64,000 nt of DNA from Haliotis rubra (Eukaryota). Under the pieces are notes generated by a model. That model was not told where the DNA came from. It ran no database searches and saw only the letters and a program-made list of their open reading frames with translations. Every line of letters begins with the position of its first letter. Position 1 is the first letter of the stretch. Positions 15,528-54,019 of the stretch are shown here, piece by piece. Both the position numbers and the translations under genes were made by a program. The DNA lies in the NCBI RefSeq assembly GCF_003918875.1, contig NW_025767575.1, positions 248,001 through 312,000 on the forward strand, written 5' to 3'.

Positions 15528-15787
15528 TACCGACCGCGGCCATAGCTGGACCTTTATTGAGAGCGACGCGCACCACACACGGAGCACTTGTAAACACCGG
15601 ATACGGTCAATCAAACACAAGAGTCGTTCTTACGTCACTTCACTGTGTGTCTTTTGTTACAAGCCGTGATATATGTCGGCTTGAATTGTTTGACTATGTC
15701 GTGCTATGATTTGAATGAACTATGCATACTTAGATACATGTTGCAGCAACTCAGACGCATGTTTAATTAATGTATTAATCAGACAAA

Positions 15788-16840
15788 ATGATTTTATTTC
15801 AGATCAGTCTATTTGTCGTGTTGGGATTGGTCATCACAACAGTTGCCGCACAGAGCTGTCCGACCGGATGTATTTGTCCAAGACCTGGTCACGTGTCTTG
15901 TACAGGGCTCTCCTCCTTCCCGAAATCCTTCCCAGCATCAACGGAAGTAGTTACAATTTATCTATCTTCCCTACCGGAGATACCGCCGGATTCGTTCAAG
16001 GGTCTGCCTCTCCTTAACACGGTGTCGCTGTACAAGAACACCATTGGGAAAATAAGAAACTGCGCCTTTAAGAACTTGGCCCAGATGAAGTCATTGAACA
16101 TCTACCAATCGAACATTGATACCATTGAGTCCGGGGCGTTTTCTAACATGTCGTTCGTAAATCCAGGATCGTTTTCTTTGTACAGCATCACTATTGGAGA
16201 CATCAAGCCCTACGCCTTCTCTTCACTCTCGGACTCCCGCTTCAGCATCTACAGCGCCAACATTACAATCATCAGGTCCTTCGCCTTCCACAACATATCG
16301 GCCAAGTCCTTCTCGTTGTATCTGGCAAACATTGACTTCATGGACACTTCAGCTTTCGAAGATTTCAACGGAACCAAATCAGCCAGCATATACTCCAGTT
16401 ACATCGCAAATACTCACTGCAACACCTTGGACGTCCTCCAGGAAGACGTTGGCAACGTCTTCTCGTTCTACCAGCTAACCTTCAACTGCAGCTGCCAGCT
16501 TGCTTGGTTGTTTGAGGCGGCGCAGACTAACCTGAACCTTGCCGCGTCGCTCAACCGAAACCGGTGCCACAACACCTCGACTGTGTTCCCTGGGAGACGT
16601 TTAGATGGTCTAAATGCCACGCTTCTGTGCCCGGGCGGAAGGGAGTCATCTCAATGTCTTAAACCGAAACTTCAGTTTCCAAGCCAGTGTCCCTTGCCTG
16701 GTGCTCCAACCCAGTCTCCGCTGCCTGGCAACGGAGACGACAGTAGTAGTAGTAGTAGTAGTAATGGTCACTGTCCGCATGTCCTTGGGTTTCTGTTGAC
16801 CCTGGTGACCGGTGTCTTCTTGAAGAATCAACTAAGATGA
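15788..16840 (+). CDS. Secreted / probably GPI-anchored leucine-rich-repeat protein (LRRNT-LRRs-LRRCT), single coding exon
   Basis: Hydrophobic signal peptide; LRRNT CPTGCICPRPGHVSC; repeats of LxxLxIYxxxIxxIxxxAFxxL; LRRCT FNCSCQLAWL...C; Ser-rich stalk and hydrophobic C-terminus; intact 350-aa ORF. Confidence 0.9.
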   Translation: MILFQISLFVVLGLVITTVAAQSCPTGCICPRPGHVSCTGLSSFPKSFPASTEVVTIYLSSLPEIPPDSFKGLPLLNTVSLYKNTIGKIRNCAFKNLAQMKSLNIYQSNIDTIESGAFSNMSFVNPGSFSLYSITIGDIKPYAFSSLSDSRFSIYSANITIIRSFAFHNISAKSFSLYLANIDFMDTSAFEDFNGTKSASIYSSYIANTHCNTLDVLQEDVGNVFSFYQLTFNCSCQLAWLFEAAQTNLNLAASLNRNRCHNTSTVFPGRRLDGLNATLLCPGGRESSQCLKPKLQFPSQCPLPGAPTQSPLPGNGDDSSSSSSSNGHCPHVLGFLLTLVTGVFLKNQLR

Positions 16841-42660: not shown

Positions 42661-43649
42661 TCATAACCAGACCCGCAGTTCCTCGGTGTGTCTGAAATTT
42701 GAGAAAAACCATAAATGCGCTAGATGGAGATTTCATCAGATGGATCTAAATTGCACGAAATCAACATTGTCGTATCGGACTTAGCGTGATTCTTGTGTTG
42801 TCATGGTGATGAAGCCAACAAGTGAGGAGCGTCTGATAAGCATCCTTGTTTCCCCCACTGCGTGTTTACAGCTACTGAATATCGGCAGTGAAAATCCTCA
42901 CACCACCAAATGTGATCAACCAACATATGAAGGAATGACAGGTCTTAATGGATGATCAGCTTCTTTATTAACTGTGCAATACACGTAGATACTTGTACCG
43001 TTTTCAAGCTTCCCATTACTTACAACTTCTAGAATGCCTCTCAAACAGTTCACCATATGGAGCACTATAAGGGCGTGTTATAGTACGTATGTCTGTAAGA
43101 TATGCTGTAGTCATGTGGGGTGGGATGGGTAGTCCTTGTGTTGGATGTATAGGACCAATGGCTGGAGTATAGGAAGCAAGACCTATCTATCGGACCAATG
43201 ATCATGTTTATTTAGATCAAAGACTGTTGCTGTTGATCCATGAACTTGTGTATGATCAAAGGAATTCTATAAAGGAGCAGTAACCGTTGCATGTGATCAG
43301 TGGCGTGTGATCAAGACTGTTGAAAGATAAATGAAATTTACACAGGATGGATAACGCGCTAAAATCCCATTGTCAGCTAGAGAATAGCAGCACCAGAAGT
43401 CGGTGCCTATAGCCGATATATGACACTGTTGAAGGGTACTGAGAAAGAACTACCAAGGCGTTTAGAACGACTGACCCATGTGCTAGCAGGTCTTTCAGTA
43501 ATAACAGCCTGATACGAGTTGTGACGACACAGTGACCACGTGGCCGAGCATCAGTAAGGAGGCGGGGACCGATGGTATTGATGGTACATGAGAGTAGCCC
43601 GACACGGACTTACCGGCGGGACTGTACTTTTGTATGGAGACATGGTACT

Positions 43650-45080
43650 GCTGTAGACTTGCACGGAGATACGACGCTCTTGTAGACTAGTACGGAAATA
43701 TGCCACTCTTGTAGACTCTTGTAGACGTGCACGGAAATACAACACGCCTGTAGACTAGTACGGAAATATGCCGCTCTTGTAGTTTTGCACGGAGATGCGA
43801 CACTCTTGTAGACTAGCAAGGAGATACGGCACTTTTGTAGACGTGCACGGAAATACGCCGCTCTTGTAAACGTGCACGGAAATACGCCCCTCTTGCAGAA
43901 TAGCACGGGGATACACGGCCCTCTTGTAAACGTGCACGGAAATACGCCCCTCTTGCAGAATAGCACGGGGATACACGGCCCTCTTGTAAACGTGCACGGA
44001 AATACGCCCCTCTTGCAGAATAGCACGGGGATACACGGCCCTCTTGTAAACGTGCACGGGGAAATAAACGCACGGAAATACGCCCCTCTTGCAGAATAGC
44101 ACGGGGATACACGGCCCTCTTGTAAACGTGCGGAAATACGCCGCTCTTGTAAACGTGCACGGAAATACGCCGCTCTTGCAGAATAGCACGGGGATACACG
44201 GCCCTCTTGTAAACGTGCACGGAAATACGCCCCTCTTGCAGAATAGCACGGGGATACACGGCCCTCTTGTAAACGTGCACGGAAATACGCCGCTCTTGTA
44301 AACGTGCACGGAAATACGCCCCTCTTGCAGAATAGCACGGGGATACACGGCCCTCTTGTAAACGTGCACGGAAATACGCCCCTCTTGCAGAATAGCACGG
44401 GGATACACGGCCCTCTTTGTAAACGATGCACGGAAATACGCCGCTCTTGTAAACGTGCACGGAAATACGCCGCTCTTGCAGAATAGCACGGGGATACACG
44501 GCCCTCTTGTAAACGTGCACGGAAATACGCCCCTCTTGCAGAATAGCACGGGGATACACGGCCCTCTTGTAAACGTGCACGGAAATACGCCGCTCTTGTA
44601 AACGTGCACGGAAATACGCCCCTCTTGCAGAATAGCACGGGATACACGGCCCTCTTGTAAACGTGCACGGAAATACGCCCCTCTTGCAGAATAGCACGGG
44701 GATACGGCCCTCTTGTAAACGTGCACGGAAATACGCCGCTCTTGTAAACGTGCACGGAAATACGCCCCTCTTGCAGAATAGCACGGGGATACACGGCCCT
44801 CTTGTAAACGTGCACGGAAATACGCCCCTCTTGTAAACGTGCACGGAAATACGCCGCTCTTGCAGAATAGCACGGGGATACACGGCCCTGTTGTAAACGT
44901 GCACGGAAATACGCCCCTCTTGCAGAATAGCACGGGGATACACGGCCCTGTTGTAGACGTGCACGGAAATACGCCCCTCTTGCAGAATAGCACGGGGATA
45001 CACGGCCCTCTTGTAAACGTGCACGGAAATACGCCACTGTGTCGACGTGCACGGAGATACGGCACTCGTGTAGACAAGCA
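43650..45080. repeat. Minisatellite with 29-bp and 31-bp monomers forming 60-bp higher-order units
   Basis: CTCTTGTAAACGTGCACGGAAATACGCCC alternating with CTCTTGCAGAATAGCACGGGGATACACGGCC. Confidence 0.95.
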
Positions 45081-46030
45081 CGGACGGAATACGTACACAG
45101 GTAGGTGGCTCTACAATGTCTCTTAATTCAGTGATGACATACAGTGTTTGGCAGGAGGAGTGGCCAGGCTCTCGGGGCTGTATTCTAATGGCGTAATTTC
45201 TGTCTCTGGCAAAATCACAGGTAATGTGCATTAAACTATTTTTTCTAAACATTATGTTACTGGTGGAAAATATGATATCCTCCGTATGTAAGCCCGGTGT
45301 TTTATACGGGAGAAATGGCAGTCTCATCAACGGTATGGTCCAGTAATATTCTCTGCCACCTTCAGGAAATGTCAAGTATTTTTTGACGAACTAAACCTCT
45401 TTTAAAATGCTTGCAGTCGGCTCTTTATGATAATACATGTATAATGAAATTAGAGAAAGCTGCATTTTACACATTTGATGATTTTAGATAAAATTACGCA
45501 TTTGAGAAAAAGACACTTTAAATTGTGATTCTTTAAAAACTGATGACTTCGACCAATTCGGTCAGAGATTCCCAATTGATATGCATTGAGAACAATACCG
45601 AACTCAAAATCGCGTGCAGTTTCACATATAGGTTAAAGAAAGTAACGGATTCACAATAAAATAGGTGTCACAATTATTGCTATCTTATACCATTAGTGAG
45701 ATTGTAAATAGTCTAACATTGTAACATATACATCTGACTGAGATTTGCATTATAGTCCGTTTGAAGCGGACCGATGAATTGCTATCTAACTCGAAAAATG
45801 GAACAGCCAGGTGTACGCGAAGCACGTGCACAATTCAACAAAGTTATTGATTCATTTACCCGTGCTGTGCCGTCTCAATCCTTCCTCGCACACCTGGCTG
45901 TTCCTCTCTTGAACTCCTCCCTCGTAACAAATAGTGAACTGGGTCAATACTTTAATGATAGTTTGTTAAACAACCTTATTATTTTTAGGACATAAATTCT
46001 ACAAAAAACCCACAGAGTTGGTCTTATGTT

Positions 46031-46429
46031 AGTAGTGTACAGCGTCACCCTGGGGTATTTTTCAAGATGGCGGCATATCCGGCGTGTGCGTGCGCATCGC
46101 GATGGCGTCACTTCCGGTTCCGGCGTGCGCGCGCATCCCGATGATATCACCTCCGGCCAAGATGGACGCCCTGTTCAAGATGGCGGCCCATCCGGTGGGA
46201 TCTCGCGGGGTCTCGTGGGATCTCGCGGAGTCTCGCGGGATCTCGCGAGAGTGGACACAATTCAAGATGGCGGACGGACGGAACGGACGGGAAGGAGAGA
46301 GGGAGGGAGGGAGGGAGGGAGAGTGGTGAGAGGACGATGGCGTGTCTAGAGAAGTGTGTGGTTCAAGCTTTGTCACTCAGGTTTTCTTTCGAGCCGGATG
46401 GGTGGCCCTGAAAAGAGCCGTTGGCATGG
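46031..46429 (+). repeat. Left terminal inverted repeat of the Polinton-like element
   Basis: Reverse complement of 53366-53740 apart from one divergent internal block. Confidence 0.93.
46383..46424 (-). terminator. Histone-mRNA-type 3' stem-loop plus HDE-like element in the left TIR
   Basis: Minus strand CCAAC-GGCTCTTTTCAGGGCC-ACCCA-TCCGGCTC-GAAAGAAA; hairpin at 46404-46419. Confidence 0.85.
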
Positions 46430-46439
46430 CAAGGCATGT

Positions 46440-46893
46440 TTAACACCGGCATAGCAGATCAAGGCCTCGGAAGATAAATTTCCCTGGGCAGACATCATCA
46501 TGTAGGTGGTGCGCTCCCTTCCTGATCCCTTCCCCACAGTAGACACACGTAAAACACGGAGCTCCTGGGACTACATCGAAGCGATTGGAGGGAAAGGCTT
46601 TGAAGCAGGTAGGGCCATTTTGACGACCATTTTGGTAGGCTTTCAGATGTAGCTGCCGTTGGTGGTGGTGGTCGGGCTACCGTTTCTGCTGACGTTGTTG
46701 GTGGTGGGGCTGCCGCTGCTTCTGCTGCCGTTGTCGGTATCAGTACCGGTTCTGATGCTGTTGTACCCTCTTCCATTTTGATACCGGTCTTCACTTGCAA
46801 GCTTGGGCTACATCGTAGACATTGCTTTCTACCGCAGTTATTTCGGTAAGGTGTTGGTAGGATGACTTCAACTCGTCTGTGTCCATGTTGCAT
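46440..46893 (-). pseudogene. Element terminal gene: Thr/Pro/Ala-rich region and a probable frameshifted C-terminal C2HC zinc finger
   Basis: ORF 46498-46893 downstream of TATA at 46924-46931; the adjacent frame reads CVYCGEGIRKGAHHLHDDVC and stops at 46440-46442. Confidence 0.45.
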
Positions 46894-47021
46894 CGAGATA
46901 GCCCTTACTTACAAATGCTGGAGTTTATATAGGCGACGAGACATCGATGACGTGTCGTCGATGACGTGGCACTGATGACGTCATGGTCGCACGTGAGGGT
47001 GGTGACGTGGCACCGGTGACG

Positions 47022-47312
47022 TCATGGTCGAGCGTGAGGCGTTGGCGCCGCCATGGCCTTTGATTGGCTGATTGTTTGCAAAAGTGTTCTAGTGGGTGCT
47101 GTGGGGTACAACTGCTTTAAGGAAGGTCTTTGTTTGGAGGAGGAAGCAGAGGGAGGAGCACTTAGCCTTTCGTACAACCGTTGCACACCCGATCCATGTT
47201 GTTTGGTGGGATCACGACCCATGGTGGTCAGGAGTGTTTTACGGATCGGTTTAAACAACCCTGTGGCAACAACACGTTTGCGGGGCCGGGCCTGTTTCCG
47301 TCTGTCTCTCAT
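47022..47312 (-). CDS. Small basic (Arg/Lys-rich) protein of unknown function, element-encoded
   Basis: 96-aa ORF MRDRRKQARPRKR...; upstream ATAAATA and TCAGTT initiator-like motif. Confidence 0.45.
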   Translation of the reverse strand: MRDRRKQARPRKRVVATGLFKPIRKTLLTTMGRDPTKQHGSGVQRLYERLSAPPSASSSKQRPSLKQLYPTAPTRTLLQTISQSKAMAAPTPHARP

Positions 47313-47778
47313 GACAGCTCTGGGTCAACTGATGGTAGGGTAGACGGTCGGCTCTATTTATCACTACTTGGGAATGTAAACGGTGGTGGGGTTGCAAAAG
47401 AGATGAATACGTACACAGTGCTCTTTGGCCGTGGTAGGTTTCAAGTCCAGGAACAAATAGGAATAAGAGCCAAAGTGGCATCCTCATAGGCTTCCCGAAG
47501 GAACATGGTAAAGGGATGACGTAACGTGAGTGGGGTGACCATGGCCTCCACCAGGTCTGTCCCTGACATAGTCCCTGACATAGTCTCTGACATAGTGTCC
47601 TGACAGACGTCTTACCATCCTGCAAGTTACACCGGAAATTACCTCCAAGAGCTAAGATCCTTAAAGATATAGAAGACCCAACCCATTGAAATTGAATTTA
47701 CATTTCAGTGATGAACAAAACAGGTTATGAATGAACAATAATGCATCAACACTACATCAACAACAGTACATCAACAGA

Positions 47779-48900
47779 TCACCACCTGTTCAGGTGATCC
47801 TGAGGATTGCAGGTACAACAAGGCAAGAATTCCATTTGTCCTGCATGAAAATGATTTTCATCGTTAAACATGGGGATGTCGATGATGGCCTCTGGCTCCT
47901 CTGGAGTCATCACTGAAGTCATCACCAGATCCGTCTGCAGAGTCATCACTGGAGTCGTCTCAGGAGCCACCACTGGAGCCGACTGCTCTGTTTCCGTTGT
48001 GACAGGCATCGGGAGTAGATCATACAGTTGTTGAAGATCTGGAGGTAACTCGTCATGGGGCTAGCAGGACTGATCCCTTGACCCTTCTTGCTCTCTTCAA
48101 CAATAGCACGGCTGGCTTGTTGATCGTTCTCCCACAAAGCCATCAACTGTTTCTTGGGAGTCCTTGGTGCTTTGAGACTCTTAGGCTTTCGGGGTGCCTT
48201 GGCGATTGTTTTAGTGGGTGTCTTGGGAAGGGGTACCTTCTTGGTGGAGACCTTGGTGGGGGCCTTCTTCTTCTTCTTCTTCTTCTTCTTTGGAGAAGTC
48301 TTGGCAGGAGTGGCCTGGGGTGGGGGTGGGGGTGTTGGGCGTCATGTCTGTGACCTCTGGATCGTTGGAGAACAAGGGTAGAGTGCAGGTGGCACGTTGA
48401 AGATCGTAGCTGGGCGGGTAAGCCCAGAGTTTCACCTGGAGTTTGTCCAGCAGCTTGATATAGGACGACCATTCCTCAGACTTGAATACGATGTGTAACA
48501 GCTTGCTGAGGTAAGTCTCCCCTGCATTTTCCTTGGCATGTGCATTGTCGATACCCATGAGTACCAAGGGAACAGAGTTGGTGGCGCTGTCGGAGAGGAG
48601 CTGTAAGAGGTCTTGGTGATAAGACATCCAGTTATAATCTTCCTCAGTCAACTCACAGAAGCGACCCATCAACCCATACAGTGTCTCTGTTTCAGGATGA
48701 ATAACCTCCAGCTTGCTAATGATCGACGGTAACTTTTGTTCCATCACTCGGATCTGGTCCTGGAGATCCATGTGGTTGGTCTTGTACAACTGGTTTTGAG
48801 CCATCATGTTGTTGTGGAGATTGGCGATGTCAGAAGCCAGGTCCTTTGCTTGCGAATTCATGTTGACGAAAGTAGAAGGGAGGTTGCCTGGAAATGCCAT
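47779..48900 (-). pseudogene. Element gene: N-terminal helical/coiled-coil region, Lys/Pro-rich H1-tail-like region, acidic Thr-rich end; probable frameshifts
   Basis: MAFPGNLP... from 48900; after the C-run near 48320 another frame reads TPAKTSPKKKKKKKKKAPTKVSTKKVPLPKTPTK...RTPKKQLMALWEND; TATA at 49030-49039. Confidence 0.55.
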
Positions 48901-49078
48901 CTTTAGACTTAGTTGGTGCAACTGATGACCCACTCGACTGATCCTGCGTATCTCTCTTCTAGATACGTTGCTACCACAAAGAGCAGCGTGAACAACATGA
49001 CTACGAATAACGATTTGGCCAGAAACGCCTATATATATACACACAGAGTGGTGTCACGTGGGTCGTCCATGGATGACG

Positions 49079-49366
49079 TCACTGAGTCTCGAGACCCAGT
49101 AATGTCATGGCTTCTGTCTCTCCACATTCCTCCAAAGCTTTGCAGAAGAGGGAGTAAGCTCTGGGTCCACGTCTGGGAAGCATATCTAACAATTCTCTGA
49201 CACAGTCAAAGGATGTTCGAGGTTTTTCGATAATCTCTGCCTTCATGAAGATGGTAAGGACTTTAAACTCCATCAGTTTGTCGACCACAGCCTCGAGCTG
49301 CTTGATATCTAGCACGAGGGCGGAACGATTCTCCCTAAGCCTATCGCGGTGAATGGGTTCGATCAT
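49079..49366 (-). CDS. CARD-only protein (caspase-2/RAIDD-like CARD)
   Basis: Intact 95-aa ORF with CARD pattern HR..L..NR..LV...VVD.L....VLT..M..EI....T....RELLD.LP.RGP.AY..FC.AL.E.G; own TATA and two TGACGTCA upstream. Confidence 0.85.
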   Translation of the reverse strand: MIEPIHRDRLRENRSALVLDIKQLEAVVDKLMEFKVLTIFMKAEIIEKPRTSFDCVRELLDMLPRRGPRAYSLFCKALEECGETEAMTLLGLETQ

Positions 49367-49799
49367 TTTCTTTCTTAGATAATAGACTCTGGCAGAAACT
49401 CCTCTCTATATACACAGGGTCGTGATGACGTCATAGGGTGTGTGTGACGTCATGGGTGACCATGGCATCCACCACGTCTGATCCTAACAGGATAAAAAAA
49501 AGGGTTGAGGGTGACCATGGACTCCACCAGGTCTGGCCCCTGAACAGAGACGACTCAACACATTTCATTTGAAATAACATTGAATGGATGAACAATGCAA
49601 ACATGGTATCGCTTAAACATCATTAGATCAACAGTACATTTACAGAGCATGTCATGGGGTACAATAAAAGTCCATTTGTTTTTTTTATTCCCCATTCAAA
49701 AAACCCTTAGGGGGCATAAGCAGGAGGGGCCACCCCTTCAGGTCCATAGGACTGATAGTAGAACTGATGGCACTCCATCTTTGGCTGAGTCTCGGGCGT

Positions 49800-50280
49800 C
49801 ATGGTCGTGACCACTGAATCATAGGTTGGCGGCTTAAAAACTTTGTCAGTGATAAGAAGTCCTCATTGATGGGCTCTAAGTCCCACACTTGATTTCCCGG
49901 AACCTCGGAGGGGAATCCAAATATTCTGTCACTATGATGTTGTAATTGCCGATGATAGAAGGCAACTCCCTTGGCCAGGAGAAAGAAGGGAGGTCGTCTC
50001 GGGATGTGTTCTCTGGATCTTAGAATTCAGGCTTACAGACGACGTAACTGATACAAAAGTCCTCTTCGAAGATGCCCAAGTCCTTCACCTGATAATGCTC
50101 TTCCTGGAGGATTTCAAGGAGCCGCTCAGTGGCTGTATCCGATGTATCGAGGTATTCTGTCACCAAGATCTTGTGCTGATTGTTGATGAGAGAATCCTTG
50201 TACTTCTGTACTGCTTGCCAAACAATGGTGTAGGTAGGAGAGGAACAAGAAGAAAAAAAGGGTTTGCCTGGAGATGTCAT
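49800..50280 (-). pseudogene. Element gene of unknown function with an internally duplicated motif; premature stop
   Basis: ILVTEYLD...VKDLGIFEEDF then, past the stop at 50020, IIVTEYLD...VWDLEPINEDF; TATA at 50332-50338; minus-strand AATAAA near 49685. Confidence 0.5.
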
Positions 50281-50398
50281 CTTCAACGGCTGAGCTGGTG
50301 CGACTGATGACCCACTTGACTAATTCTGAGGTTTTATAGGCAGCAACAGCAGCGCGAGCTATGACGTCACTTCAAATCGCGTCACGATTTTTTTGGGT

Positions 50399-52552
50399 TC
50401 ACTCTTTATAGCCATAGGGGAGAGTTTCCACGGGGACTTCTTGTGGGTCGTACTGGACTCGACCTTTGGTGTAGACCATTCGATACTCTTTGGTGGTGTC
50501 GTTGGACAGCAACGCATTGCCCTGGCGAAGTCCTCCGCGAATGATGCGGTGCGAGTATGGGACAGTGATGCTGACTTGATCCCTCTGACAGACGAGGTTC
50601 TTTATGTTGTCAAAGTGGACATGTTGTCGCCCTGTGATTCAGAGTAAATCCTCGGACTTTGCTGATGCCTACACTACCGTCAGGTTGAGGATGGCGCAGC
50701 TTGTAGGTGTAGTTCTTGGGTCCTCTCGAGACAAAGGCGTGAATGCTGTTGCCCCCTCCCAGTTCATCGGTCAGCTCCCCTAAGGTATCTCCCAGTGGAG
50801 GGTTCTAGCTTAGTGCACGGTGAATGTAGATGATACTGTATGTATCAAAATAGAGTACGCGTCGATCCAAGGGTTTCAAGTAGGAATACAGCTTGAGATG
50901 GGCTTATGCTGTCACCCAGGCTGCAATGACCACATTGTGGGCGGGATGCGTGTCGTGAAATTCTGACTTAGGTTCGTAAGTGACACACACGAGGGCCTCG
51001 TTGACGAAGTGCACATCCTTTACCACACACCGTTCATCCCGGAGGAGGGCAAAGAACCTCTCAGGGGAACTGTATTCGGTCTTGTCAAACCTGACGCTTT
51101 GGCCAAACTTGCCTCAATGGTTGTTCAGGCAAGCTTTAGCTAGGGCACGTAGTCCTGGGTTTTTGCGGATGTGAGCAGGATCCAAGGTGACTCCTTCTTT
51201 TCATGAATCTCCCTGATGTAGGCGTCTGGGTCTGAACAGCCTTCTGGAAATCCGCTGGCCTCTTGCTTGATCTTGAAGAAATTGTTCACATACTTGGCAA
51301 ACAGTCCTCCCTCTTGAGAGTCAGGGTCGTAGGTGGTGAGCGTGTCAAAGTGGCAAGCCTCAAAGACGTGAAGCACTTGATAGCCGCACTCTCGAACGGC
51401 ATACTGAAGCTCCTTGCTGACATACGTGCCGATCCATGCTCGGTCTTCATCCCTGTGGGGGCAGGAACCAGCCAACACAGCACGACACAGAGAAAATAAC
51501 AACTTGCTCTGGACGCGGTTAGGAAGAACAGGATGGTAGAGGTCGGTGGGTTGTAAGACTCGGCACTGGATGAGGCCATGTAACTCGAACAAGTCAGCCA
51601 TGGGATGATGATCTTTGATCTCGGGATGACCCACGGGGTAAGTACCATACTTGCACATGTAAGGGTACAGTGAACAAACGTCCACATATTTCATTTCTTC
51701 ATCTTCTTTCGCTCCGTAGTACAACTTGGTGGCGTTTGTGCGTCCTCCAAAGAAGGCATCTCTGGGATCCAACGGTTCAGGCATGTAGTCATGAGGTCCT
51801 TGCAGTGTGGTCAGGAACGCTCTCAGATCAGCGTTGTCTTTCTGTTCTTTCCGAAAATCACATTTCCACAGGGTCACCACTTGGTGGATGTCAGAATGTT
51901 GGCGTAACACCACCAGTCGGTACCTTGTATGATGGTATCATTCCCAAGGTGCTGTACCCATGGTACTGTGGGGTTCACATCGACCTGTCTTGTAACAGTG
52001 AGTACATCCATGACCAGGGCAGGGGCAAAGCAGAGTTGATCATCATTCTTGATTTGTAAGATGCATTGTTTCTTTTCCAGGAAAGTGTTTAAGCCAATGA
52101 TGTACCTTGGCCGTCCATGTCCCTTGCCTACACGATCAGGATCTTCTACATGCAGTTAGTATATATCCATGGTCTCACCGATATACAAGTCGTGGTTACT
52201 TTGCTGTACTTTTTCCACTTTGGCCATGATGCGTTCCCCCCTGGAGGTCACCCATCTGCTGACATGTGATTGGGATGTCTGAATCCAGGGCTGGATGTTT
52301 CAGGGCCAATCCCACGCGATCATCATCCTGGCCGTTCATATTGTTTCTCAGGTCTAACAAGACAGCATCAAACTGCTCTCTGAGAATGACGGGGAGGTCT
52401 TCAGGTTGTTGATGCTGCAACCAAGCTGGACTGAACTTCAGCTTATAGCGATGAGTGTTGCTCCGGAACTTCTTCTGTGTAAGTAGGGACGTTGGCTCCG
52501 ACCAGTAAAGTTCTTCTTCTTCCTCTGCTTTGTTCATTCGTGGTGACTGCAT
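50399..52552 (-). pseudogene. Protein-primed family B DNA polymerase (Polinton-type), internally deleted and disrupted
   Basis: LDPRDAFFGGRT, YVDVCSLYP, YPVGHP, KIKQEASGFP, GKFGQ, YFDTYS (for YxDTDS), LGELTDE, GPKNY, KVRGF, terminal TLPYGY; N-terminal domain at 52196-52552. Confidence 0.92.
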
Positions 52553-52585
52553 GGTGAGAATTGACAAGACCCACACTGAGCCTGG

Positions 52586-52791
52586 TTTATATAGACAACG
52601 TCACCCTATGACGTCACAATAGGTCGTCCTAAGCGTGGCAGTGCGCATCACAAGCTCATTTGGTGTTGAATGACGTCACAAGTTTTTCTCTCATGGGCAT
52701 GCCCTAGGACGTTACACTAGTCTGTCGACCCATGAAACGAGAATGTAAGGCGATTCGCGCCAAAGTGACGTCATCGACTCCAGCTATAAAA
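52586..52791. promoter_or_regulatory. Divergent promoter for PolB and the zinc-knuckle gene: two TATA boxes, three TGACGTCA, one E2F-type site
   Basis: TTTATATA 52586-52593 (minus), TGACGTCA at 52609, 52671, 52766, TTCGCGCCAAA 52754-52764, TATAAAA 52785-52791. Confidence 0.7.
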
Positions 52792-52841
52792 ACTCGAGGT
52801 TTTCCAGCTCTCCCCATTAGTTGCTCACTGAAACTGGAAGC

Positions 52842-53341
52842 ATGCAGTCGTCTCCCGCCTCCGCCTCCTTCCGTTGCCGCCTGTGCGAAACAGATGACCA
52901 CAGTTATCTGCACTGTCCCAAGGTGACCTGTACCGAGTGTGGTGCTCAAGGCCATCGTCATTACGTATGTCCCAAGAAGGCCACGGACAGTAACAAGCAC
53001 GATAACAACACCTGCTACAACTGCGGACAAAAAACGAAGGCCATCTCAGTTACGACTGTCCACATCCCAGCCGCCACTGTGGTAAAGAGGACCATAAGAG
53101 TATGACCTGCACCTACAAGACCCAGAAACGTGCGGCTCCCGTCAACCAGTCAGCTCAACCAACAAAGAAAGTGGGTAAACATGAAGACAATCGTCTACTG
53201 GCTCTACTCCATGACAAGGTCATCCTCGTTGAAGACCGTATAGACACCGTGCACTCTCTACTTCAATGTGTCTTGGAGTTTGTTGAACCCATGGACGATT
53301 CCAGCAGCACCGCCTCGAGTGGACCACCATCACCACAATAG
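52842..53341 (+). pseudogene. Multi-CCHC zinc-knuckle protein (nucleocapsid/CNBP-like) with C-terminal helical segment; one frameshift near 53030
   Basis: CRLCETDDHSYLHC, CTECGAQGHRHYVC, CYNCGQ/EGHLSYDC, degenerate RHCGKEDHKSMTC; joins the 53102-53341 frame. Confidence 0.8.
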
Positions 53342-53365
53342 ATACCTCGGTGATGTCTCACCCAC

Positions 53366-53740
53366 CCATACCAACGGCCCTTTTCAGGGCCACCCATCCC
53401 AGATCGAAAGAAAACCTGAGTGACAAAGCTTGAACCACACACTTCTCTAGACACGCCATCGTCCTCTCACCACTCTCCCTCCCTCCCTCCCTCTCCTTCC
53501 CGTCCGTTCCGTCCGTCCGCCATCTTGAATTGTGTCCACTCTCGCGAGATCCCGCGAGACTCCGCGAGATCCCACCGGATGGGCCGCCATCTTGAACAGG
53601 GCGTCCTTCTTGGCCCGCACACGCCGAAACCGGAAGCACCGGAACCAGAACCCGAGTAACCTCCCCTTATCGGAAGTGATGCCATCTTGGGTCACGTGAC
53701 CCATCTTGAAAAAGACCCCAGGGTGACGCTGTACACTACT
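53366..53740 (-). repeat. Right terminal inverted repeat of the Polinton-like element
   Basis: Reverse complement of the left TIR; ends ACTACT followed by the TSD. Confidence 0.93.
53371..53414 (+). terminator. Histone-mRNA-type 3' stem-loop plus HDE-like element in the right TIR
   Basis: CCAAC-GGCCCTTTTCAGGGCC-ACCCA-TCCCAGATC-GAAAGAAAA; hairpin at 53376-53391, 34 nt after the stop at 53341. Confidence 0.88.
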
Positions 53741-54019
53741 TATGTTTTTATTAGGATAGGCGTTTCATTGAGTATTATATGTGTATTAGTTTTCGAGTTA
53801 GATTGCAATTCATCAGTTCGCTTTAAGCCAAAGGGACTATACTTGTTTTGAATTATATATTTGAATGACGGACGTGCAGCGCCTAATGTTCTCTCACTTT
53901 TACGTAAACATACTATTCCAAAAAGGAAACGCATAACCCAGAAATCTGTTGCGAAAAGGTTGCATTTTCAAACATGTATATCTCGTCCACAAATATACTT
54001 TAAGAAATGAATTTTTACA

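Follow-up and report, generated by a model that had tools for sequence, protein, structure and literature searches.

In replication-dependent histone mRNAs, 3' ends are formed by a pathway in which SLBP binds a hairpin, the U7 snRNP pairs with a downstream element, CPSF73 cuts five nucleotides past the stem, and the presence of the mRNA is limited to S phase. These transcripts are, among cellular mRNAs, the only ones known to lack poly(A), as described in the accessible text of PMC4604434; in metazoan histone genes the median stop-to-hairpin distance is 30 nt, and a G-C at pair 2 and a U at loop position 3 are diagnostic (10.64898/2026.10.14.759114, section 9). Human cytomegalovirus (HCMV) is dependent on SLBP, with no viral hairpin described in the available sections of PMC9169081, and the available part of a 2026 survey reports no SLBP homologue in large DNA viruses and sought the hairpin behind histone genes only (10.64898/2026.10.14.759114). 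Polintons (Mavericks) are recognized by terminal inverted repeats of 100-1500 bp, (AGT)2//(ACT)2 ends and a 6-bp target duplication (PMC8097293; 10.1101/2023.08.22.554363, accessible sections). The window analyzed here, 64,000 nucleotides of Haliotis rubra (contig NW_025767575.1, positions 248,001 to 312,000), holds a Polinton element of 7,710 bp (46031-53740), in which the two terminal genes are each followed by a histone-type 3' stem-loop. The surprising result is the presence of histone-type 3' ends in three Polinton lineages. The reading preferred here, at a probability of about 0.6, is that the hairpin and purine-rich element of the terminal genes would recruit host SLBP and U7 and yield S-phase mRNAs, in a decayed copy of an abalone-type Polinton.

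Histone-type 3' signals in three Polinton lineages

The inner edge of each inverted repeat of the element carries, in this order, CCAAC, a stem of 6 bp that is closed by the loop TTTC, ACCCA and the purine-rich GAAAGAAAA. The two signals and the genes that they follow are:

46382-46424, minus strand: histone-type 3' end signal of gene A; stem-loop at 46419-46404, GAAAGAAAA at 46390-46382, Rfam Histone3 score 27.6 bits.
53371-53414, plus strand: histone-type 3' end signal of gene F/G; stem-loop at 53376-53391, GAAAGAAAA at 53406-53414, Rfam Histone3 score 33.8 bits.
46440-46886, minus strand: gene A, broken; the likeliest frame has three in-frame stops and a C-x2-C..H-x3-C zinc-finger-like end motif.
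52842-53341, plus strand: gene F/G, with a frame change near 53030; multi-zinc-knuckle and coiled-coil, with the stop 34 nt before the stem-loop.

A single zinc-knuckle gene probably underlies F and G, since the knuckle series goes on in the second frame. Both hairpins are on the sense strand of their terminal gene, 34 nt behind the F/G stop and 20 nt behind the likely stop of gene A, against the roughly 20-60 nt that are usual for histone mRNAs, and a degenerate form of the hairpin motif occurs twice in the 64 kb versus 0.08 expected. The Rfam Histone3 model matches the right site at 53371-53417 (33.8 bits, E 7e-7; gathering score 34) and the left site at 46424-46379 (27.6 bits, E 1.5e-4). 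In both, pair 2 is the diagnostic G-C and loop position 3 the diagnostic U, and the margins of the two hairpins differ at 5 of 37 sites with all six pairs kept. Behind genes A and F/G no A(A/T)TAAA is found within 420 nt, and the purine-rich element lies at most 15 nt behind the stem. The window genes share with the 3' end of replication-dependent histone mRNAs (RF00032) the 6-bp stem, the 4-nt loop, AAC before and ACCCA after, as well as the purine-rich element, the short 3' untranslated region and the lack of a poly(A) signal. By contrast, they are non-histone genes of a virus-like mobile element, known here from sequence alone, and no histone domain is detected in the open reading frames (ORFs) of the window. 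Three DNA runs (X1, X2 and X4) have 14-25% of the window's words in common and may come from other species. One diverged contig of X4, with 51 differences in 346 nt, can be aligned across gene G as far as 53393, where the stem ends; beyond this point the match is lost.

Hairpins of this type recur in other Polinton-like loci. A strict pattern has no match in 121 loci because it required an A after the loop, where the relatives have G, while a relaxed pattern detects a TTTA-loop form. The final scan, of 84 Polinton-like loci (535,583 bases), finds 8 hairpins in four loci versus one match in 20 shuffles, and Rfam scores 4 hairpins at 35.0-35.5 bits, above the gathering score, among seven loci scanned. 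Each of the 8 hairpins follows a frame of 60 or more codons, 10-41 nt after its stop, a location shared by 9.4% of background positions (p ~7e-6, with 5 sites taken as independent after near-copies, tandem copies and the two window sites were collapsed). One sits behind a protein kinase gene, and no histone domain is found among 61 frames around the hairpins of loci L070, L081 and L109. The four hairpins of L109, which use both strands, occupy the stretch that separates an integrase-like ORF from a protein-primed DNA polymerase B (pPolB), away from any terminal repeat and with the ATPase and other core genes beyond; L081 has two hairpins in tandem. On a pPolB tree the carriers fall into three separate lineages (the window; L070/L071; L081/L109), which, on this quick tree, would require three separate gains or losses. 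In an 8-site alignment 48 of 48 stem cells pair, with two-sided change at two pairs, a result equalled by 5 of 500 shuffles of these few, related rows. The other lineages have an AAAG-containing element 11-17 nt past the stem; in L081/L109 it mostly overlaps AATAAA.

Several points weigh against a histone-type function of these signals. At the gathering level Rfam has no match in the whole window, where the hairpins surface at the E-value level only, the right one 0.2 bit and the left one 6 bits below the gathering score. The two window hairpins are not independent, as they lie within inverted repeats, and the right hairpin is part of the lowest-energy fold of its 3' region while the left is not (73-nt context). 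The frame of gene A is uncertain: its distance to the stem-loop is 20 nt in the likeliest frame and 78 nt in another frame, at 46498-46893, that is open. The pattern of the final scan was widened after the first matches were known; 80 of the 84 loci have no hairpin, although most are fragments, and these negatives are therefore not absences. Rfam has no match on 14 further loci, and three patterns have none in a viral contig collection. Close behind 5 of the 6 L081/L109 hairpins is an AATAAA-type word; thus, the L081/L109 genes may be polyadenylated instead.

The pathway proposed for the window element would run as follows. The hairpin of each terminal gene would recruit host SLBP, and the purine-rich GAAAGAAAA would recruit the U7 snRNP; U7-guided cleavage directly after ACCCA would then leave mRNAs with no poly(A), whose synthesis and translation would fall mainly in S phase. 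The benefit would be that early regulatory genes are expressed in step with replication of the host's DNA, a time at which both replication factors and nucleotides are at hand. Transcription, SLBP binding, U7-guided cleavage and benefit are inferred. For the signal-carrying Polinton genes in general, processing by the SLBP/U7 pathway is judged somewhat probable.

Further observations concern the gene content of the carrier loci. Three tandem small paralogous genes of L109 (5372-6400) are each ended by their own hairpin, the first with a weak PRANC (F-box-like) match (E 0.0015). Transfer RNA genes are present in L109 (6428-6949; Trp, His, Val), L081 (245-426; Ala, Met) and L104 (5280-5351; Met), those of L109 and L081 adjoining the hairpin-ended genes, and 12 other loci scanned have no tRNA genes.

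A decayed abalone-type Polinton and its genes

The ends of the element and its two core-gene remnants are:

46025-46030: left target-site duplication TATGTT, from the sequence and the empty-site joints.
46031-46429, plus strand: left terminal inverted repeat, which starts AGTAGT and contains AAGATGGCG and TCTCGCG repeats.
53366-53740, minus strand: right terminal inverted repeat with the ACTACT end, from repeat comparison.
53741-53746: right target-site duplication TATGTT, from the sequence.
50399-52552, minus strand: pPolB, broken; ~630 codons deleted at ~52012, three frame changes and five stops.
47364-47542, minus strand: packaging-ATPase remnant; start and end of the gene with the Walker-motif middle deleted at ~47502, and one frame change.

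A sequence-only reading of this DNA had described intact ends with a 6-bp duplication and ~400-bp inverted repeats around a broken pPolB, in an element with no virion or integrase genes. The ends and the polymerase are borne out. The termini are AGTAGT on the left and ACTACT on the right, flanked by a perfect 6-bp duplication (TATGTT), and the terminal 20-mer has exactly two copies in the 64-kb window and none in 100 shuffles. The inverted repeats of ~400 bp have inner limits at 46429 and 53366 and agree over the first 39 nt plus 46155-46392. An empty site is represented by contigs of runs X1, X2 and X4 that connect 46025 with 53742, with joints that fall within a very abundant host repeat. 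The element thus has the repeats, ends, target duplication and (broken) pPolB by which Polintons/Mavericks are recognized, while its 7,710 bp lie outside the 13-25 kb of autonomous Polintons.

The pPolB is matched by Pfam DNA_pol_B_2 (E 8.9e-17). Relative to the 1,334-aa H. asinina protein P0006, it is without residues ~190-821 through one clean deletion near 52012, which takes out the exonuclease region; the remainder carries the three frame changes and five in-frame stops. An X1 joint of 52051 to 52008 adjoins this deletion. The open pPolB piece matches 286 proteins, the best from Haliotis asinina (78%), followed by H. rufescens and H. cracherodii; by segment, identity to the Haliotis relatives is 69-84%, and on the quick tree (104 rows) the window groups with Haliotis proteins with support of 99 and 100. 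With P0006 as sole query no viral locus is matched. In H. asinina one pPolB cluster has 16 members (15 listed) on at least eight large contigs, and the pPolB middle is whole in four of the five models that span the deletion, with a different, shorter gap in the fifth. One H. asinina model (P0125) is a pPolB fused to a CARD that is 64% identical to the window CARD, and two separate 'caspase-2-like' models have accession numbers adjacent to those of pPolB models. The CARD gene directly behind pPolB is, on these gene models, a family trait and not cargo retained by a satellite. All 30 bins of the element are covered in the three DNA runs, and most contigs are 90-99% alike. Judged from these matches, the element belongs to a multi-copy Polinton family of abalone type, as a copy that has decayed and suffered internal deletions.

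This family, as found in H. asinina and H. rubra (XP_067660043, XP_067676458, XP_067660619, XP_046556771), is like the window element in pPolB, CARD order and multi-copy state; the Haliotis relatives, known here from gene models alone, differ in having a full-length pPolB. In a wider comparison, with Polintons that have a group-2 pPolB, the element shares (AGT)2//(ACT)2 ends, the 6-bp duplication, ~400-bp repeats, intronless genes and an ATPase (a remnant here). By contrast, it measures 7.7 kb against their 13-25 kb, and its pPolB and ATPase are internally deleted. The group-2 set includes the Alpha-type adintovirus PolB (pfam03175) and mollusc pPolBs with a VSR domain (Jeong et al., 10.1101/2023.08.22.554363, accessible sections), and the searched text of the papers contains no description of histone-type 3' signals.

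The claim that virion and integrase genes are missing holds in part. The profiles used were built from ORF families that recur across 80 loci from metagenomes and 4 viral ones; the other 37 of the 41 viral loci matched short or giant-virus segments only and were excluded. The family names are the author's reading of motifs and sizes and not a database call. The integrase (11 ORFs), major capsid (6), putative minor capsid (4) and protease (6) profiles have no match in six frames, at 4-11 sequences per profile, a size at which short remnants are missed; five small-protein profiles likewise have no match. The packaging ATPase does not fit the claim. A remnant is recognized at 47364-47542 because a profile matches 47468-47382 (i-E 6e-4; 8e-4 by a second profile), its two ends correspond to the L103 ATPase, and 47502/47503 is where contigs of three runs depart from the window. 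The N-terminal LRHPFTM stretch passes directly into the C-terminal part, and what is present, by these matches, is an ATPase gene that, like pPolB, has lost its middle. Thus, among the ORFs left unnamed by the sequence-only reading, one stretch proves to be an ATPase remnant and none has a capsid or integrase match. The copy on its own is unable to replicate, package or integrate.

The remaining genes of the element are:

47053-47343, plus strand: gene B, open, 96 aa, with a GCCGCCATGG start.
47779-48900, minus strand: gene C, with two frame changes; helical N-terminus, Lys/Pro-rich middle and C-terminal Cys/His motif.
49079-49366, minus strand: CARD-only gene, open, 95 aa; Pfam CARD E 7.8e-15.
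49707-50280, minus strand: gene E, an optional cassette, broken; the only gene with AATAAA behind it.

The small genes of the element had been proposed to have their own promoters and to be retained cargo for apoptosis control and nucleic-acid binding. The promoters are confirmed as motifs, with sense-strand TATA boxes before six genes and perfect TGACGTCA sites numbering nine in the 7.7-kb element versus none in the other 56.3 kb. Retention applies to the CARD gene and gene B, which are open, and fails for genes A, C, E and F/G, which have stops or frame changes. An apoptosis-related cargo is upheld by the CARD (E 7.8e-15). For nucleic-acid binding, zinc knuckles are detected in gene F/G, yet below the Pfam cut-off (E 0.006-0.009: zf-CCHC_6 at 0.009 in the first frame, zf-CCHC at 0.0056 in the second).

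The window CARD shares 56-81% identity with the CARD domains found in Haliotis gene models and in relatives; one relative continues into a BIR domain. Anti-apoptotic cargo has been reported from adintoviruses before (PMC8502044, section 3.2). The H. rubra CARD models continue into PC4 domains, unlike the window CARD. The Cys/His end of gene C (47794-47913) resembles the tail of H. rubra CARD-PC4 proteins (E 0.008), and the CARD gene upstream of gene C terminates straight after the CARD domain; gene C may have been inserted into, or have replaced, the PC4 part of a CARD-PC4 gene. Gene C has no longer homologue and no result in the Atlas, and its single-sequence model (pLDDT of 38) is unusable. 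The open pieces of gene A and the whole of gene B have no match in Pfam or PHROGs, and candidate assignments of gene A as BIR/IAP and of gene B as Bcl-2-like were dropped, as neither collection supports them. An Atlas search with the N-terminus of P0138 and a prokaryote scan with P0153 gave nothing useful.

Gene E has a promoter and start that resemble those of gene C. Its region has a depth at least 6-fold and mostly more than 10-fold lower than the rest (depths are sums over contigs, not copy numbers), and joints of 49675-50399 in X1, X2 and X4 bypass it. Within it (49912-50187), two short repeats resemble a pPolB segment (residues ~1105-1150 of P0006) with weak scores (pairwise E 5e-4 to 0.008; profile E 0.04); gene E as a module derived from pPolB is a tentative reading. 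A 36-nt intergenic repeat occurs at 47533-47568, 49454-49489 and 49509-49544, and also behind pPolB in H. asinina gene models; the gene E cassette was gained or lost beside this repeat.

Other observations relate to the ends and surroundings of the element. Amid terminal repeats that are otherwise 99% identical, the block 46070-46154 has no match to its partner 53616-53701, which points either to subfamilies that have recombined or to a promoter block that varies. The AAGATGGCG and TCTCGCG repeats of the left terminal repeat are labelled YY1-like and BANP-like, respectively, and further motif labels are ETS, CRE and Kozak. The insertion target (45751-46030 and 53747-53841) is a host repeat of ~380 bp, probably a miniature inverted-repeat transposable element; its ends are inverted (83%) and its depth in the runs is very high. 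One X1 contig crosses the right junction (53650-53943) with ~5% differences; thus, the insertion site may be shared or preferred. A tandem satellite of 29/31-nt units (43600-45100) lies directly left of the element. The only clear host gene in the window is a single open frame of 353 aa at 15779-16840, by eye a secreted leucine-rich-repeat membrane protein, and the remainder is repeat-rich animal DNA, judged from long ORFs.

Satellite, fossil and passive hairpin

Kapitonov and Jurka reportedly described non-autonomous Polinton derivatives in 2006. The element is like these in its intact ends around DNA that is not self-replicating, and differs in that amplification of its deletion form is only putative; mobile polintons without pPolB are also known (10.1101/2025.02.07.637071, accessible sections). 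The satellite idea of the sequence-only reading, in the form of a non-autonomous 7.7-kb family that is multiplied in trans and retained for cargo that modulates the host, is considered doubtful. The perfect ends and target duplication agree with it, as do the integrase, capsid and protease profiles without a match and the deep coverage of every gene except E in three DNA runs. Its strongest quantitative argument lies in the repeats. Five stops in 724 pPolB codons correspond to ~6% unselected change (2-15%), from which 10-31 differences would be expected over the 251 aligned sites of the matching repeat blocks; 2 are observed (P 0.002 with the low bound of change, or 0.10 with the stem-loop margin). 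The ends are thus better preserved than the genes, less clearly so when that margin is counted. Copying after decay therefore fits, which needs a helper, and the copy was probably last duplicated with a helper's enzymes after pPolB decay began, the least certain step of this account. Gene conversion between the repeats would explain their identity equally well, and some frame changes, lying within single-base runs, may be assembly errors. Against amplification of this form, no second copy with the same deletions is seen among the short contigs, which do show a multi-copy family. Where the window's ATPase was deleted, the run contigs contain additional DNA, and their sequence is unlike the window at two of the frame changes and one of the stops; H. 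asinina models retain the pPolB middle, and four of six cargo genes are broken. Full-length pPolB is found in other Haliotis species only.

That a complete Polinton instead lost its virion/integrase block and gene middles in place, and that the hairpins are a functionless relic of captured histone-gene DNA, is unlikely. In favour of such a genomic fossil, nearly all genes carry lesions, 96% of vertebrate Maverick loci are degraded (PMC8097293, accessible text), and the tRNA genes beside the hairpin genes of L081 and L109 point to an uptake of host non-coding DNA. A relic accounts poorly for hairpins at a histone-like distance behind unrelated genes in three lineages with all pairs kept and no histone coding remnant nearby, and the ends are too similar for in-place decay, barring conversion. 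Were it not for the hairpins, nothing would set the deleted copy apart from ordinary Polinton fossils or non-autonomous derivatives. An improbable alternative is that the hairpin is functional but serves as a passive terminator, a stability element or an SLBP decoy, with mRNAs that are polyadenylated or not cut through U7. The AATAAA-type words behind most L081/L109 hairpins and the tandem hairpins of L081 would suit such a role, and HCMV requires SLBP outside histone synthesis (PMC9169081, available sections). This role is harder to reconcile with the window genes, which lack a poly(A) signal and have a purine-rich element no more than 15 nt behind the stem, and with the AAAG-containing element kept 11-17 nt behind the stem in other lineages.

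Meaning for animal Polintons

A full-text search, with subscription papers, Repbase reports and closed supplements beyond its reach, found no published report of a histone-type stem-loop at Polinton genes, and term searches of the accessible text of PMC8502044, PMC11131425, PMC8097293, 10.1101/2025.02.07.637071 and 10.64898/2026.10.14.759114 returned no mention of the signal. The odds lean slightly towards animal Polintons of several lineages hijacking the SLBP/U7 pathway through histone-type signals behind their own regulatory genes. Their mRNAs would then be the first protein-coding ones outside the histones, and the Polintons the first among virus-like elements, to use histone 3' ends for expression locked to S phase. 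If true, a virus-like element would have a direct means of timing its genes to S phase, and the unknown life cycle of animal Polintons would gain a testable statement. Polinton transcripts of this kind would be invisible to poly(A)-selected RNA sequencing, which may partly explain the apparent silence of these elements.

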